Of a stretch of DNA of 53,040 nucleotides, positions 38,052 through 41,812 are shown piece by piece. Numbering within the stretch: the first letter of the stretch is position 1; every line of letters starts with the position of its first letter. Under the pieces are notes generated by a model. It saw only the letters and a list, made by a program, of their open reading frames with translations. It made no database searches and was not told where the DNA came from. The stretch lies in the sequence record NC_079175.1. One strand, given 5' to 3'. This DNA is from Escherichia phage PO103-1. Both the position numbers and the translations under genes were made by a program.

Positions 38052-38144
38052 GTGGACGAGGTTGGATTCGAACCAACGACACATCTGTCGAACAGATTGC
38101 TCTACCTGACTAAGCTCTGGAGCAGACCTTCTGAGCTACTCGTC
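38052..38144 (-). ncRNA. tRNA-like element (possible degenerate or unusual tRNA)
   Basis: Perfect 7-bp acceptor pairing GGACGAG/CTCGTCC, canonical UAGCUCAG and GGUAGAGC D-arm pieces, T-arm GUUGG-UUCGAAU-CCAAC; but about 24 extra nt in the D region and a 5-nt anticodon-position loop. Confidence 0.35.
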
Positions 38145-39478: not shown

Positions 39479-40153
39479 TCAATATCTATTGAATCGTTCT
39501 AGTGTTTTATTTACTAAATCCTTTGTCTCAGCGACAGTGAGTTCAGTGATGATTGATTCGTCATAACCCTCAATCTGGATTGCTACAAAACGCCCAACTC
39601 CAGTTACAGTGAGTCGGTTTGTTCTGTCACGAACAACTACACCAGCTTCTTGCGCGACTGCTCGCAACAATTTCCAGCGTAAAGTTCGATTTGGTACAGC
39701 AAAGCCCTTTGCCGAGAACAACTCTTTCATGAGTTCTCCAAGACAAACAGCTTCAATGTTTTGTCCTCTTCCAACTAATTCTTGCAACAGGCACAGTGTC
39801 AACATTTCTAAATTGTTGAAGTGTCCAGCGCGCTCCAAATTAAAGAACTCTGGAGGAACAGTTGAACGAGATTTAACAGCTTGCTTGTATGCACGTTCTT
39901 CTTCCTGTGCAGCAAGCATCAGCATCTCTGGCTTAATGTATTTCATAGCAGAGAAGCCAGCGCGTGTGGCTTTAATTATGCGACAAGCCTCTTTCATCTT
40001 GTAGCGTTGCCACTCACCGCGCTTCGATTCTGGATTAAAATGGACCCACATAATGATAACATCTTCCTTGGCAAGATAGACGGCATCATTATCATTGAGC
40101 CATTGCTTACACGTTGATAGTGCAATCTCTTTGTCATCATCATGATAAGACAT
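39479..40153 (-). CDS. Hypothetical protein
   Basis: Likely start MSYHDDDK at 40153 abutting the upstream gene stop. Confidence 0.45.
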   Translation of the reverse strand: MSYHDDDKEIALSTCKQWLNDNDAVYLAKEDVIIMWVHFNPESKRGEWQRYKMKEACRIIKATRAGFSAMKYIKPEMLMLAAQEEERAYKQAVKSRSTVPPEFFNLERAGHFNNLEMLTLCLLQELVGRGQNIEAVCLGELMKELFSAKGFAVPNRTLRWKLLRAVAQEAGVVVRDRTNRLTVTGVGRFVAIQIEGYDESIITELTVAETKDLVNKTLERFNRY

Positions 40154-40154
40154 T

Positions 40155-40481
40155 TTAGTGGCCTTGTAGGATACGTTTGTTCGCAGTTTCTGCGTCGATT
40201 CCCAAATCAACTAATGTCACCAAGCACTGCGAAATCCGCTCTTGCGCAGCTTTCTCCAGAATTTGGTATTTTTCGTTGTCAATGCCTAACACATTCTTGG
40301 CATGAATGAGTGTAGCCATTAGACCATGACCCAAAGCAACAGCTTGCATTGCCCGGAGTTCAAAGTTAATTGTGATGCCAGCGAGTTCGTGCTCTTTCTG
40401 GATAATCTCAATCAACTCTTCTTTAGATTTGTCCTGTAAGTTCAAAATGGAACTCCGTAAATCGGTTGGTTTGTTGTCCAA
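40155..40481 (-). CDS. Hypothetical protein
   Basis: 108-aa ORF. Confidence 0.45.
   Translation of the reverse strand: MDNKPTDLRSSILNLQDKSKEELIEIIQKEHELAGITINFELRAMQAVALGHGLMATLIHAKNVLGIDNEKYQILEKAAQERISQCLVTLVDLGIDAETANKRILQGH
40207..40220 (-). promoter_or_regulatory. Early-region conserved motif copy (variant)
   Basis: gtgACATTAGTTGAt about 50 nt upstream of the 39479..40153 start. Confidence 0.3.
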
Positions 40482-40762
40482 TTGCGAGTTGCGATTTGCA
40501 TGGACTTGTTTGGGCCGTAGTAGAAATATTTCTTAACTTCGGCAAGGGTGTAGTTGGCACTGCTTTCAAGCAACTCCTTAAAGGTGTGCTTCCAGAATCC
40601 ATCTTTCTCCGACAGACTTACGTGGAAAGAATTAGTGCCGTTATAATACCAACGCCCACCAACGAGAACGAAGTGGATTGTTTCTTCCTCTCCTTCCCCA
40701 CTTGAAGGGAACATTAGTACATTTCTCAACGTCAAAACTTTAGCAGAATGCTTGCGAACCAT
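40442..40762 (-). CDS. Hypothetical protein
   Basis: 106-aa ORF. Confidence 0.45.
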   Translation of the reverse strand: MVRKHSAKVLTLRNVLMFPSSGEGEEETIHFVLVGGRWYYNGTNSFHVSLSEKDGFWKHTFKELLESSANYTLAEVKKYFYYGPNKSMQIATRNWTTNQPIYGVPF

Positions 40763-41403
40763 AGGAACTCTCCAATTTTCGATTCAGTGTTTGTGACTTC
40801 TCTTCTCATCTTTTGGCCCAGGAACAGGCCACAGGGTAGCGCAGGAAGGCCGAAAATCGGGCCGCTGCCTACCGTTTGTGTCAATTCTGGATAACTGCAT
40901 TGGCGAAGGGTTACTCCCGTTAGGGTGCGATACGCTAATCACATGAGTGTTGTCGCCTTGCGGCTCAGGCGTGTCACAGAGGCTTTGCAACCCTTCCCAA
41001 TACATTCACCCAATCCACCTGCTTTGGCATAGCTGGTGGCGCGGTTTTGTGCGGATTATGCCACTCTAAGCCCTGTTTGTCCGACTTCCTCAGAGCACCA
41101 GCAGCTTGTGGCACAAACCTATTTTCGAATGACTAACATAAGCATGAGGCATAACCCTCTAATTATTCAGCCCTAACAGCTTGCTTATTTAGTTCCAATT
41201 CATCCCAATACATCGCCTATAACAAGTGAATAGCTTTTCTGCGAAGAAGTATTCCGGCCCTATGGCCTATGTTAAAAGATAAATGTAATATGATGGAAAC
41301 ATTCCATCGAAAAGAACTTTGTAGAACGAATCGAACGTTCTCACACGCCTTGGTACCAGACGGACTACCTAGTTACAAAGTTCTTATCTGATGTTGTTTC
41401 AAT

Positions 41404-41420
41404 TCCAACTAATGTCGAAT
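41404..41420 (-). promoter_or_regulatory. Early-region conserved motif copy
   Basis: attcgACATTAGTTGGA at the edge of the 40763-41408 non-coding block. Confidence 0.3.
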
Positions 41421-41585
41421 GTCTTTCTTGCAAACAGGACAAGTGATAAATCTATATGCGAAATATCCTCGGTCATTCTTACCTGTGTATATCTTTAAGT
41501 CCGAGAATTCATAAGACACAACAGAAGCACATAACCGACATTGGCGTGTGAAGGTTACTGTATCTTTTTCCAGAACTTTAATCAT
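41409..41585 (-). CDS. Small zinc-ribbon protein
   Basis: About 59 aa from ATG with GGAG 6 nt upstream; CRLC...CPVC pairs; the motif copy overlaps its RBS. Confidence 0.45.
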   Translation of the reverse strand: MIKVLEKDTVTFTRQCRLCASVVSYEFSDLKIYTGKNDRGYFAYRFITCPVCKKDIRH

Positions 41586-41590
41586 TTCAT

Positions 41591-41608
41591 CTCCAACTAA
41601 TGTTTCAG
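41591..41608 (-). promoter_or_regulatory. Early-region conserved motif copy
   Basis: ctgaaACATTAGTTGGAG; its GGAG doubles as the RBS of the zinc-ribbon gene. Confidence 0.35.
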
Positions 41609-41731
41609 AATTATTCCAATATTCCAAACAAAAAGAATAATAAGAATAAATTAAATAAATGAAGAAAGTGCTTGACACCCATTTGGCGATAAGTGTATAA
41701 TGCCTTTCTTCCCTAAGTGGTCAGAATCAAA

Positions 41732-41748
41732 TCCCACTAATGTTTCAG
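41732..41748 (-). promoter_or_regulatory. Early-region conserved motif copy
   Basis: ctgaaACATTAGTGGGA in an intergenic stretch. Confidence 0.35.
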
Positions 41749-41812
41749 ACTAAAGCCGAAGGCCAATGCGAGCACAAAACCCGCTTGGCACTTCGAAGAA
41801 ACCCGCCTGGAA

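Follow-up and report, generated by a model that had tools for sequence, protein, structure and literature searches.

The window analysed here is the whole 53,040-nucleotide genome of Escherichia phage PO103-1 (NC_079175.1), a Carltongylesvirus (Chaseviridae, phiEcoM-GJ1-like) in which every gene lies on the minus strand. A gap of 646 bases (40763-41408), described as free of credible open reading frames (ORFs) in the first-pass annotation, does exactly fill the space between two minus-strand ORFs: upstream a small zinc-ribbon-like ORF (41409..41585/41678), whose stop codon bounds the gap, and downstream a 106-aa ORF (40442..40762), whose ATG at 40762 forms the other boundary. The block had also been called GC-rich, which is true of 40800-41100 (54.5% GC) and not of 41101-41408 (39.0%). 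The gap overall has 46.1% GC against 43.9% for the genome, and the richness is limited to the half that lies downstream in the sense of transcription, the first 300 nt being AT-rich (39% GC). Searches of the neighbouring proteins against Pfam and PHROGs returned “unknown function” only, apart from one ArdA-like antirestriction protein, and gave no functional clue. A tRNA-like gene is located at 38143-38050, 2.6 kb downstream of the gap, and the other non-coding block of the genome contains a tmRNA-tag-like ORF together with the tRNA-like gene. Adjoining the gap, positions 41610-41710 carry AT-rich repeats (GGAATA/TTATTC) and a conserved antisense (divergent) consensus sigma-70 promoter; this stretch would be a better origin or regulatory candidate than the gap itself.

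All features of the block described below are on the minus strand. A promoter box of the phage single-subunit RNA polymerase, ACATTAGTTGGA (41415-41404), reads straight into the gap, and the TAG within it doubles as the stop codon of the upstream small ORF. Seven such boxes were found in the genome where 0.54 are expected, all seven on the minus strand; three of them fall in the 350 bp immediately upstream of the gap, the ACATTAGTTGGA box closing a tandem series of three downstream of the early terminator. Homologous boxes carry a phage-promoter annotation in SA91KD and phiEcoM-GJ1, and a box also lies immediately upstream of the RNA in phiA050, Faunus, 4HA13 and L023. No intrinsic terminator was found between the promoter box and the ribosome site and ATG (40762) of the next gene, so the RNA would at least initially be the 5′ leader of the next transcription unit. 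At the far end, a conserved translation-initiation region (GUCACAAAC...AAAUUGGAGAGUUCCUAUG, 40760..40797) leads into the start codon of the 106-aa gene. It is invariant in relatives even where the downstream gene is a different one (gp25-like in SA91KD, PYps3T and TH37), and is also found in phiA050 and 4HA13. A local hairpin predicted here by RNAalifold (helix 25) covers part of the Shine-Dalgarno sequence; it never varies and is hence uninformative.

The predicted RNA opens with a 5′ leader, GAAACAACAUC (41390..41400), which is invariant across genera save for two variants that keep its pairing as G-U wobbles (GAGACA in L033, AAUAUC in PYps16N). The leader can pair with GAUG...UGUUUC of the hairpin HP1 (GAUGGAA-UGU-UUCCAUC, 41292..41308) and so close the first domain, D1; this pairing and the local HP1 hairpin are mutually exclusive. 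HP1 is identical in all Carltongylesvirus-type sequences, 4HA13 and Faunus, with one A-to-G change (a G-U wobble) in phiA050 and L023; this predicted hairpin shows no covariation. D1 (41312..41385) consists of a 12-bp closing stem (AAGAACUUUGUA/UACAAAGUUCUU) capped by a predicted D-arm-less tRNA-like fold: a 7-bp acceptor-like stem (41380-41374 / 41323-41317), a D-replacement loop ACUAGGUAGUC (41373-41363), an anticodon-like arm (41362-41346), a 5-nt variable loop UGUGA (41345-41341) and a T-arm-like hairpin (41340-41324). This last hairpin is the palindrome GAACG-AATCGAA-CGTTC of the first-pass annotation, which exists, one base away from the 41325-41341 given there, at 41324-41340. Chance alone would produce a perfect 5-bp stem roughly once per kb (4^-5), so the palindrome alone is not significant; what raises it above chance is that the stem covaries (GAACG/CGTTC in 4 distinct sequences vs GAATG/CATTC in 8) and that stems of 5 bp with a 7-nt UUCRAUN loop reappear where the D1 sequence context is unrelated (ACAGG-TTCGATG-CCTGT in MLP1, GGCCG-TTCAATT-CGGTC in UViG L023). 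The palindrome had been likened to a T-arm, a likeness that grew stronger, as GAACG-UUCGAUU-CGUUC stacks on the 7-bp UACAAAG/CUUUGUA stem and both helices covary. Its supposed want of a matching acceptor stem proved mistaken, as CTTTGTA (41380-41374) pairs with TACAAAG (41323-41317) directly 3′ of the hairpin, and the helix extends to 12 bp with compensatory changes. Across the D1 alignment 98.5% of cells are paired over 34 pairs, ten of which changed on both sides vs 4.3 in shuffled and 0-2 in slid controls, and the minimum-free-energy folds have the same shape in 10 variants. In Faunus, Pel53 and phiA050 the apical part is swapped for hairpins that are not tRNA-like.

D1 resembles a tRNA in that its 7-bp acceptor-like stem sits directly on a T-arm of 5 bp, whose 7-nt loop UUCGAUU is of the UUCRANY type; the D-arm is replaced by a GG-containing loop, a 5-bp stem with a 7-nt loop occupies the anticodon position, and the variable loop has 5 nt. 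It differs from tRNAs and tRNA-like structures in having no D-stem, U33, free 3′ end, CCA or G3-U70, in its acceptor helix of at least 12 bp, and in that some relatives have unrelated hairpins in place of the module. The loop at the anticodon position reads GGUACCA (G33, C37), varies between relatives and has neither the U33 nor the purine at 37 of a tRNA; the helix has no free acceptor end and runs on as the 12-bp covarying stem, and CCA is not encoded. ARAGORN in bacterial mode reported 0 tRNA genes, both for the whole genome and for 22 related loci; with the Rfam tRNA model there was no match at E <= 10 over 40400-41800. In mitochondrial mode, ARAGORN called 4 of 12 D1 variants in differing registers, an inconsistent result that was not taken as evidence. 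A tRNA gene was rejected on the negative ARAGORN and Rfam tRNA results and on the missing D-arm and free 3′ end; tmRNA was rejected as well, given that ARAGORN was negative, D1 has U3-A70 instead of G3-U70 and the block holds no tag-like ORF, which in tmRNA ends in Ala-Ala-stop. The tRNA-like systems compared were bacterial YrlA/Y RNA domains, the tRNA-like domain of tmRNA and D-armless mitochondrial tRNAs. In YrlA, a tRNA-like module is set inside a longer helix, as D1 is here; the Rfam tmRNA and YrlA models were negative. The apparent tRNA mimicry by D1 is partial, and in Faunus, Pel53 and phiA050 D1 shows none.

A hairpin GGCC-AUAG-GGCC (41256..41267), conserved in Carltongylesvirus-type sequences with no informative variation, lies in an AT-rich variable linker. 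Downstream of it, the predicted three-way junction D2 (41118..41201) is the most widely conserved module, made of P2o (GAAU/AUUC), P2a (11 bp with a conserved bulged G), P2b (AGCU-GUUAG-GGCU), the junction GAAUAAUUA and a variable hairpin, P2c. With covariance model R1 and alignment A4, 4 of 4 P2o pairs and 8 of 11 P2a pairs changed on both sides. D3 (41053..41119) is a three-tier hairpin with a lower UUUG stem, P3a, P3b (one bulge) and P3c, capped by a GRAAG pentaloop (41089-41085). Its P3a helix differs by lineage while still pairing: UGCCAC/GUGGCA here, GCCUAU/AUAGGC in phiA050 and L023, GCCAUUU/AAAUGGC in Faunus, UGGCUCA/UGAGCCA in 4HA13 and UGGCCUU/AAGGCCA in GJ1; likewise P3c is UCUGA/UCGGA here vs GCUGA/UCAGC, UUGAA/UUCAA, UUGGA/UCCAA and GUGAA/UUCGC in relatives. 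In A4, 16 of the 26 D3 pairs, and 29 of the 48 D2-D3 pairs across genera, changed on both sides, counts that are biased because A4 was fitted to the model structure. R1 gave full-length D2-D3 matches in phiA050, 4HA13, GJ1, L023 and Faunus (E 1e-23 to 1e-30), and weaker ones in PM1/PP101 (E about 1e-7); Loessnervirus has D2 without D3 in its syntenic gap (E 6e-5 and 9e-4). D2 and D3 are common to Sabourvirus, Faunusvirus and an Aeromonas phage, D2 alone occurs in Suwonvirus and Loessnervirus, and the RNA is present in one copy per genome. Strings reminiscent of RNase P RNA (GAGGAAGUCGG, GGGUGAA..GGGAAGGGU) were considered and rejected: in RNase P, GAGGAAAGUCC and a distant ACAGAACCCGGCUUA-type strand together form the long-range P4 helix, an arrangement not found here, where GRAAG caps a short local stem of 5 bp that covaries in five lineages. 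Nor did the Rfam RNase P models match the region (E <= 10) or eight related loci (E <= 5).

Between D3 and D4, RNAalifold places a small hairpin (CCACCAGC...GCAGGUGG, 41015..41044) that is weakly supported by one A-U/C-G exchange. D4 (40887..41013), the GC-rich part, is an interrupted long-range 26-bp stem (UUGGGUGAAUGUAUUGGGAAGGGUUGC / GUAACCCUUCGCCAAUGCAGUUAUCCAG) enclosing variable apical hairpins (40915-40986) that are swapped wholesale between relatives. The stem (helix 19) is 99.5% paired over its 26 pairs, 8 of which changed on both sides, and its strands are exchanged together, from GAAGGGUU/AACCCUUC here to GGAGGAUU/AAUCCUCC in MLP1 and UUAGGUCUG/CAGACCUAA in phiA050; in phiEcoM-GJ1 a 133-aa endonuclease ORF stands in place of the whole of D4. 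A group I intron with a homing endonuclease, which would interrupt a host gene, have a P3-P7 catalytic core and often bear the endonuclease ORF in a peripheral loop, was rejected, as Rfam Intron_gpI gave no match on the region or the eight related loci and the endonuclease ORF is found only in phiEcoM-GJ1, where it replaces D4; there are no exons either, because the block starts at a promoter and ends at a ribosome site. Following D4, a predicted unpaired stretch, AAUUGACACAAAC (40874..40886), is invariant in Carltongylesvirus-type sequences, and its ACAAACG is retained in phiA050, 4HA13, PM1 and L023. Two hairpins (40814..40873), H5 (40873-40835) and H6 (40831-40814), precede the translation start region. 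The apical stem of H5 is GGCCCGA/UCGGCC here, GGCCCUA/UAGGGCC in TH37 and GCCCG/CGGGC in TH29; helices 22-24 of this region each include pairs changed on both sides, and no U-run follows H5 or H6.

Over the full length, RNAalifold predicted 154 pairs, of which 39 changed on both sides vs 10.9 +/- 2.2 in shuffled and 5-13 in slid controls, with an energy of -140.7 kcal/mol on the minus strand vs -107.9 on the plus strand. Predicted minus-strand pairs contain 193 G-U cells vs 17 A-C cells, and single-sequence fold z-scores were -5.2 (minus) and -2.0 (plus). A coding gene used as control, however, also exceeded its own controls in the same RNAalifold count (21 of 174 pairs vs 7.4 shuffled) and folded with z = -4.2. 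We therefore dropped the z-score as an argument (-4.2 in the control vs -5.2 in the gap), down-weighted the raw covariation counts, and used in their place the compensatory fraction and cross-genus helix replacement. The compensatory share of variant cells is 0.33, 0.50 and 0.65, vs 0.18 in the coding control. As far as comparative sequence analysis goes, the case for the predicted fold rests on this several-fold higher compensatory fraction, on wholesale hairpin replacement and on the absent coding signal; HP1, the leader and much of D3 and D4 do not vary within the genus, so they yield no covariation signal there. The alignments show predicted helices kept by compensatory change both within the genus and across genera, and a structured RNA as such is well supported. 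This was one of the options raised in the first-pass annotation, and the promoter at the 5′ edge, the cross-genus covarying helices, the lack of codon periodicity, the stronger minus-strand fold and the conservation across genera all speak for it.

The gap does not evolve like coding sequence. Its variable columns are spread evenly over the codon phases (137/130/130) vs 71/51/181 in the neighbouring coding gene, gap runs in its alignment are mostly not multiples of 3, and neither 3-periodic substitution nor a pattern of in-frame indels was found across it. The longest minus-strand ORF inside, 73 aa (40784..41005), spans hairpins with indel differences in relatives, such as a 1-nt insertion in Mangalitsa. 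A short ORF starting at an ATG inside P2c was rejected as well, the ATG being changed to GTG or lost and the frame not kept in TH37 and phiA050.

Absence or lack of conservation in relatives would have spoken against the block, which is instead conserved across several Chaseviridae genera. Identity is 82-98% in about 45 Carltongylesvirus-type genomes, where the minus strand shows invariant stretches interrupted by hairpins that are replaced wholesale yet still paired. In phiA050, Faunus and 4HA13 the core segments are 75-92% identical while the adjacent ArdA-like protein is only 30-35% identical, and domains D1-D4 have been exchanged, lost or separated independently among phages. In a test for host mimicry, a blastn search of 5,426 complete E. 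coli genomes with the RNA as query gave no match at E <= 1. An exact-pattern scan of IMG/VR (leader plus HP1) retrieved 7 contigs, all Chaseviridae-type; the D2 motif scored 1 chance match in 185,579 genomes, and in JGI metagenomes it retrieved 2 Carltongylesvirus-type contigs plus a further match that is chance-like by eye, yet scores 26.5 bits with R1 (rough E 2e-4). The Rfam/Infernal scan that had been proposed, run as cmscan of Rfam 15 over the whole genome at gathering thresholds, returned nothing; relaxing the cutoff to E <= 10 for the region and to E <= 5 for eight related loci brought up chance-level matches only (6A, mir-3126, mir-383, SpR10). Among the curated large RNAs (ROOL, GOLLD, OLE, HEARO, raiA, group I and II introns, RNase P RNA, 6S, tmRNA), no Rfam 15 model matched. 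Literature searches found no description of this region.

ROOL (RF03087) and GOLLD (RF01998) are non-coding, heavily structured phage and prophage RNAs of 500-800 nt that are associated with tRNAs; GOLLD sometimes has tRNAs in its linker, and its 5′ part is variable and its 3′ part conserved (PMC12286853; PMC5737381). The RNA predicted here is likewise phage-encoded, about 640 nt long, with a variable tRNA-like 5′ module and a tRNA-like gene 2.6 kb downstream, and thus has the features of that kind (phage, more than 500 nt, conserved structure, near tRNAs), a resemblance of kind and not homology. It differs in being a string of hairpin domains in which no long-range pseudoknotted core was detected, in its range (Enterobacterales and Aeromonas phages of one virus family) and in that its modules can occur separately. 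The locus also recalls T7, in that a structured non-coding segment lies directly downstream of (tandem) phage-polymerase promoters at the early-to-middle boundary of a phage with a T7-like polymerase. The mRNA elements of T7, the RNase III R-sites and the phi10 5′ stem-loop, are single hairpins of about 50-60 nt; the 640-nt multi-domain array differs from them, and they have neither cross-genus-conserved junctions nor a tRNA-like module. The candidate RNA represents a new family of phage RNAs that Rfam release 15 does not contain, and ROOL and GOLLD are nearest to it in kind.

Taken together, the gap probably encodes, on the minus strand, a modular and structured RNA of about 640 nt that is non-coding and transcribed by the phage's own RNA polymerase. 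An unlikely rival is that the block is purely a cis-acting structured 5′ leader of the unit starting at 40762, providing a nuclease-resistant or processed 5′ end as in T7 mRNAs, and perhaps gating the Shine-Dalgarno sequence, possibly in response to temperature. The missing terminator between block and ATG fits it equally well, the initiation region is conserved along with the block despite differing downstream genes, and a local hairpin overlaps the Shine-Dalgarno sequence, although that hairpin never varies. The interrupted 20-26 bp duplexes in D1, D3 and D4 resemble RNase III substrates, which the T7 R-sites are. Infectivity of carltongylesviruses depends on temperature (PMC13340011), which makes a thermosensor conceivable. 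However, some 550 nt of junctions and loops conserved across genera far exceed the needs of stability or Shine-Dalgarno gating, and the D1 cap evolves as an interaction surface, not as a stability element. Furthermore, in Suwonvirus a terminator-like hairpin and a promoter intervene between D2 and the downstream gene, as does an ORF in PM1, and Loessnervirus retains D2 without D3.

It is improbable that the block acts at the DNA level, as a T7-type replication origin whose transcript is the primer, or as a ColE1-like structured primer RNA. In T7, the primary origin consists of phage promoters in tandem and, after them, a non-coding AT-rich segment in which DNA synthesis is primed by transcripts. 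The present site, about 20% from the left end of the genome and just past the early terminator, recalls that origin, with three of seven promoter boxes just upstream and AT-rich repeats and a divergent sigma-70 promoter adjoining. Yet T7-type origins require no conserved fold and the AT-rich repeats lie outside the block; in GJ1 an ORF took the place of D4, and Suwonvirus shows the modules rearranged. An origin had also been among the options of the first-pass annotation, and is disfavoured by strand-specific, G-U-rich pairing, which points to RNA and which DNA structures would not keep, and by the lack of a GC-skew inflection, a test that co-oriented transcription weakens. Less probable still is a decayed or mis-called coding sequence, a decayed tRNA gene with junk, or chance structure, even though several GenBank records annotate small ORFs over the block, relatives have real tRNA genes at other sites (PMC8762354) and the coding control shows apparent structure too. 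The annotated ORFs disagree between records and cross variable hairpins, codon periodicity is absent and indels are out of frame, helices are replaced in concert at several positions, and the 75-92% conservation reaches other genera whose neighbouring proteins have diverged.

For the probable structured RNA, we tentatively favour a decoy or scaffold mechanism, at somewhat less than even chances, in which the RNA would offer binding modules and also serve as 5′ leader of the next transcription unit. Each domain would be a self-contained binding module, its near-invariant junction and loop nucleotides making contact with partners that are conserved among the Enterobacterales and Aeromonas hosts or among the phages, with components handling tRNA or the ribosome as the likeliest partners. 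An abundant transcript might be cut into domain-sized pieces, by RNase III at the long duplexes or by RNase P at D1, and transcript or pieces would act at an early stage of infection. With its T-loop and GG-containing loop, D1 would display the elbow of a tRNA while keeping the acceptor end closed, so that it could not be charged. Rapid turnover of the D1 cap, together with the dispensability of D4 in phiEcoM-GJ1, would fit an accessory host-interaction role and not an essential one. More speculative, and rather doubtful, is the idea of a new class of large, multi-domain “ornate” RNA in lytic coliphages with a T7-like polymerase, a Gram-negative counterpart of ROOL and GOLLD. Its D2/D3 would bind a universally conserved host machine (ribosome, tRNA-processing enzyme or RNA polymerase) or self-assemble, D1 would be a tRNA decoy, and with the tmRNA-tag-like element and the tRNA-like gene of the neighbouring block it would make up an RNA toolkit against host translation or tRNA-targeting defences.

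If real, this RNA is among the most conserved non-coding early-region features of Cleopatravirinae (a subfamily of Chaseviridae), yet in dozens of GenBank genomes, phage-therapy candidates among them, it is left unannotated or overlaid with spurious small ORFs. What ROOL and GOLLD do has long been a puzzle, and they occur mostly in hosts that are difficult to manipulate; a comparable RNA in E. coli phages, which grow easily, would be directly testable, driven as it is by a simple T7-like promoter. A tRNA-like cap swapped among close relatives would give a handle on RNA decoys against tRNA-directed host defences. Even as an ordinary processed, stabilising leader, the block would correct the annotation of these genomes and mark the start of the middle transcription unit.

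The window is approximately a complete genome (~53 kb) of a Carltongylesvirus (Chaseviridae, Cleopatravirinae) in reverse orientation, with all credible genes on the minus strand. The gap at 40763-41408, which the first-pass annotation had described as a GC-rich block free of ORFs, is the exact interval from the stop codon of a small zinc-ribbon-like ORF (41409..41585, minus strand, PHROG 2834) to the ATG of a 106-aa ORF (40442..40762, minus strand), the first gene after the block. The absence of genes was borne out: the longest minus-strand ORF inside is 73 aa and spans segments with out-of-frame indels among relatives. GC enrichment applies to 40800-41100 (54.5%) and not to 41101-41408 (39.0%; whole genome 43.9%). 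The palindrome GAACG-AATCGAA-CGTTC does exist, at 41324-41340 rather than the 41325-41341 first assigned, and because chance alone should produce a perfect 5-bp stem about once per kb, its significance derives from comparative data only.

The block occurs, at identities of 82-98%, in about 45 genomes of Carltongylesvirus type (isolates on E. coli, Shigella and Yersinia, and a single record labelled Staphylococcus) and on two metagenome contigs; a search of complete E. coli genomes found nothing similar. Relative to the flanking genes its conservation forms a mosaic and is not uniformly higher. In phiA050 (an Aeromonas phage), Faunus (an Erwinia phage) and 4HA13 (a Sabourvirus), core pieces of the block keep 75-92% identity, while the ArdA-like protein next to it shares only 30-35%. 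For the 106-aa gene, nucleotide comparison matched nothing in phiA050 or Faunus and no more than a 6% fragment in 4HA13. In block-bearing genomes, other genera included, the syntenic position is a large gap, unannotated or dubiously annotated. Some records place 'hypothetical protein' ORFs of 31-70 aa on the RNA (Mangalitsa_028, PYps3T ORF028/029, PYps16N ORF026, 4HA13_0024/0025 and others), which vary between records, cross covarying hairpins and are probably spurious.

Variable columns of the block are spread over the three codon phases as 137/130/130, versus 71/51/181 in the neighbouring 243-aa gene (39479-40210, minus strand, PHROG 13087), aligned as a control from a comparable phage set, and gap runs in the block alignment are mostly non-multiples of three. 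In a 13-genome alignment of the minus strand, invariant stretches are broken by hairpins that have been swapped wholesale with pairing kept. RNAalifold predicted 154 pairs from 16 full-length sequences, with 97% of alignment cells paired; 39 of these pairs changed on both sides (shuffles 10.9 +/- 2.2, slid controls 5-13). For modules D2 and D3, whose helices were written by hand from the cross-genus comparison before the covariance model R1 was built, the count across genera was 29 of 48 (shuffles 10.1, slid controls 4-9), and for the tRNA-like subtype of module D1 it was 10 of 34 (shuffles 4.3, slid controls 0-2). The coding gene under the identical procedure also exceeded its shuffles (21 of 174 pairs versus 7.4; slid controls 4-7), and a 638-nt coding stretch reached a fold z-score of -4.2, versus -5.2 for the block and -2.0 for its plus strand. 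Since the coding control also folds stably and beats shuffles, neither fold stability nor raw RNAalifold pair counts are unbiased measures in this genome: the method itself may be biased, or the mRNA of the 243-aa gene may be truly structured. Four features separate the block from this control: a larger compensatory fraction among variant cells (0.33 at full length, 0.50 in D2-D3 and 0.65 in D1, versus 0.18), helices that change at many positions in concert (by reading, helix P3a has five sequences in five lineages), the absence of a coding signal, and strand asymmetry, with RNAalifold energies of -140.7 kcal/mol for minus versus -107.9 for plus, 193 G-U versus 17 A-C cells and the weaker plus-strand z-score. 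We consider it very likely that the block is a functional structured RNA of the minus strand.

Exactly one R1 copy was found per genome, with E-values of 1e-42 to 1e-50 in Carltongylesvirus-type sequences, 1e-23 to 1e-30 in phiA050, 4HA13, phiEcoM-GJ1, Faunus and the IMG/VR contig L023, and ~1e-7 in Suwonvirus PM1 and PP101. Two Loessnervirus genomes carry D2 without D3 in the syntenic gap (E 6e-5 and 9e-4). Pattern scans outside Chaseviridae-type contigs gave only two isolated motif matches, one clearly due to chance and the other weak (26.5 bits with R1).

On the minus strand, a leader at 41400-41390 (GAAACAACAUC) precedes D1 (41385-41312), a 12-bp stem bearing a tRNA-like cap. The cap consists of an acceptor-like stem (CUUUGUA/UACAAAG), an 11-nt GG-containing loop in place of the D-arm, an anticodon-like arm CGUCU[GGUACCA]AGGCG that covaries (TH25: CGUUA[CGGCCGA]UAACG), a variable loop UGUGA and a T-arm-like hairpin GAACG[UUCGAUU]CGUUC. 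MLP1 and L023 have different D1 sequences, yet again form a 5-bp-stem hairpin with a UUCRAUN loop; Faunus, Pel53 and phiA050 hold unrelated hairpins within the same D1 stem. Hairpin HP1 (41308-41292) is invariant in Carltongylesvirus-type sequences, 4HA13 and Faunus, with a single A-to-G wobble change in phiA050 and L023; it could alternatively pair with the leader, and both leader variants seen (only two) retain this pairing as wobbles. D2 (41201-41118) is a three-way junction with the near-invariant core AAGCUGUUAGGGCUGAAUAAUUAGAG, followed by D3 (41119-41053), a hairpin in three tiers capped by a GRAAG pentaloop, and D4 (41013-40887), a long-range stem of 26 bp whose apical hairpins are exchangeable. 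At the 3' end, hairpins H5 and H6 (40873-40814) are followed by a translation-initiation region at 40797-40760.

D4 is replaced in phiEcoM-GJ1 by a 133-aa ORF (1682-2083 of its locus L005, recorded as 'putative exonuclease SbcC') that matches a PHROG endonuclease family (E 9e-10) and by eye has an HNH-like Cys/His pattern, CxxC...HH..H; a viable phage can thus do without D4. Genes for HNH endonucleases are likewise annotated in the other non-coding block (~39017-38045 in the window) of 4HA13 and Pel53, and from these two observations homing endonucleases seem to target conserved RNA regions of these phages. A different, 'type B' D4 occurs in 4HA13, Faunus, L023 and Suwonvirus, its outer helix covarying by reading (GAUUAU/AUAAUC versus GAUUGU/ACAAUC). 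Suwonvirus has a terminator-like hairpin and a promoter between D2 and D4, and PM1 additionally a zinc-ribbon ORF. A further conserved two-hairpin module, GGAGUCCACUGCA..UGCAGCC..ACCAAGUCUGGACAACUUGG, behaves like a mobile RNA cassette: in loci L020, L023 and L033 it lies between promoter copies upstream of the RNA, where the window has the small ORF, and in phiA050 (L006 ~2870-2935) within the D1 stem.

Seven copies of the 12-mer ACATTAGTKGGA lie in the window, all of them on the minus strand (0.54 expected), and the homologous boxes of SA91KD and phiEcoM-GJ1 carry a phage-promoter annotation in their records. Three of the seven, at 41743, 41603 and 41415, lie directly past the annotated early terminator. 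The last (41415-41404, minus strand) directly adjoins the block, and transcripts of the phage polymerase should therefore enter at ~41400. A consensus scan found no intrinsic terminator within the block, which ends in a conserved Shine-Dalgarno sequence and ATG; the RNA as made would thus be the first ~640 nt of the next transcription unit. The small-ORF segment at 41416-41585, between two promoter copies, is absent from JL1, SA91KD and GJ1, a presence/absence polymorphism with promoter repeats on both sides. Its 89-aa ORF (41409-41678, minus strand, mechanical GTG start) probably starts at ATG 41585, downstream of the promoter at 41603, giving 58 aa with CxxC...CxxC (PHROG 2834); its TAG stop codon lies within the next promoter box.

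A sigma-70 promoter that fits the consensus perfectly (TTGACA, 18-nt spacer, TATAAT; 41672-41701, plus strand) lies between phage promoter boxes one and two and is directed against all genes. The arrangement TTGAC(A/G)-N16-18-TA(T/C)AAT is kept syntenically in all Carltongylesvirus-type loci checked, phiA050, Faunus, 4HA13 and PM1/PP101, and its spacer varies by genus around an inverted repeat with compensatory changes (ACAGAT..ATCTGT, ACACAT..ATGTGT, ACAGAAT..ATTCTGT). This promoter might produce an antisense RNA, trap polymerase or activate an origin.

The other non-coding block contains a tmRNA-style tag frame (38812-38770, minus strand), AAAAUAAAU GCA AAU GAU UCU GAA AUG CGA GUU GCA GCU UAA, reading ANDSEMRVAA-stop versus ANDENYALAA in E. 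coli tmRNA. The tag ORF is kept in Loessnervirus (Y2 ANDNEMRAAA-stop; pEa_SNUABM_27 ANDSEMRVDA-stop), and 160 nt around it match unannotated DNA of otherwise unrelated ~48-158 kb phages of Klebsiella, Escherichia and Vibrio hosts. Rfam gave only weak matches (alpha_tmRNA E 0.018, permuted tmRNA E 0.25) and ARAGORN called no tmRNA here; the frame could belong to a tmRNA-like or mRNA-like-domain element of phages that has gone unrecognised. ARAGORN also missed a tRNA-like gene at 38143-38050 (minus strand), with acceptor GGACGAG/CUCGUCC, normal D-arm, anticodon arm and T-arm (GUUGG-UUCGAAU-CCAAC) and ~23 extra nt separating the D-arm from the 5' strand of the acceptor; against the Rfam tRNA model it gives a local match only (38061-38116, 27.9 bits, gathering score 29, E 0.003). 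The homologous block of relatives contains an annotated tRNA-Arg, and the paper on the PYps phages notes that this tRNA has been gained and lost (PMC8762354).

The block lies next to a promoter, evolves as non-coding sequence, keeps conserved helices that covary, is made of modules that can be separated, and mimics a tRNA in part. We favour, as rather probable, the explanation that an element so constituted acts via RNA structure. A role as decoy or scaffold is a tentative reading: the domains would be binding modules with partners conserved across hosts or phages, D1 may show a tRNA elbow to tRNA-recognising enzymes or defence nucleases, and the long duplexes may be RNase III sites freeing domain-sized RNAs. 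Because three tandem promoters drive the block, the transcript would be abundant. A purely cis-acting leader, in keeping with the Shine-Dalgarno sequence at the 3' end, is a somewhat less probable reading, and some other RNA function takes what remains of the probability. That the block serves as an origin or primer is improbable; a better origin or operator candidate is ~41610-41670, where the DNA that separates the antisense sigma-70 promoter from a phage promoter is AT-rich (32-37% GC), with TTATTC / GGAATA(A) repeats in both orientations that form longer arrays in Faunus, 4HA13 and L023. An artefact, decayed gene or chance pattern is very improbable.

No family of Rfam 15 (tRNA, tmRNA, RNase P RNA, ROOL, GOLLD, OLE, HEARO, group I/II introns, 6S and Y RNA included) was matched by the block, ARAGORN called neither tRNA nor tmRNA in it, and we found no description of its RNA in the searchable literature. 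The nearest kind is ROOL/GOLLD, large ornate RNAs of 500-800 nt that are phage- or prophage-encoded, tRNA-associated and of unknown function, GOLLD having a variable 5' part and sometimes embedded tRNAs (PMC12286853). The block RNA matches neither covariance model and looks architecturally simpler, a string of hairpin domains; we therefore class it as a family of its own, new within a kind of RNA that is already known.
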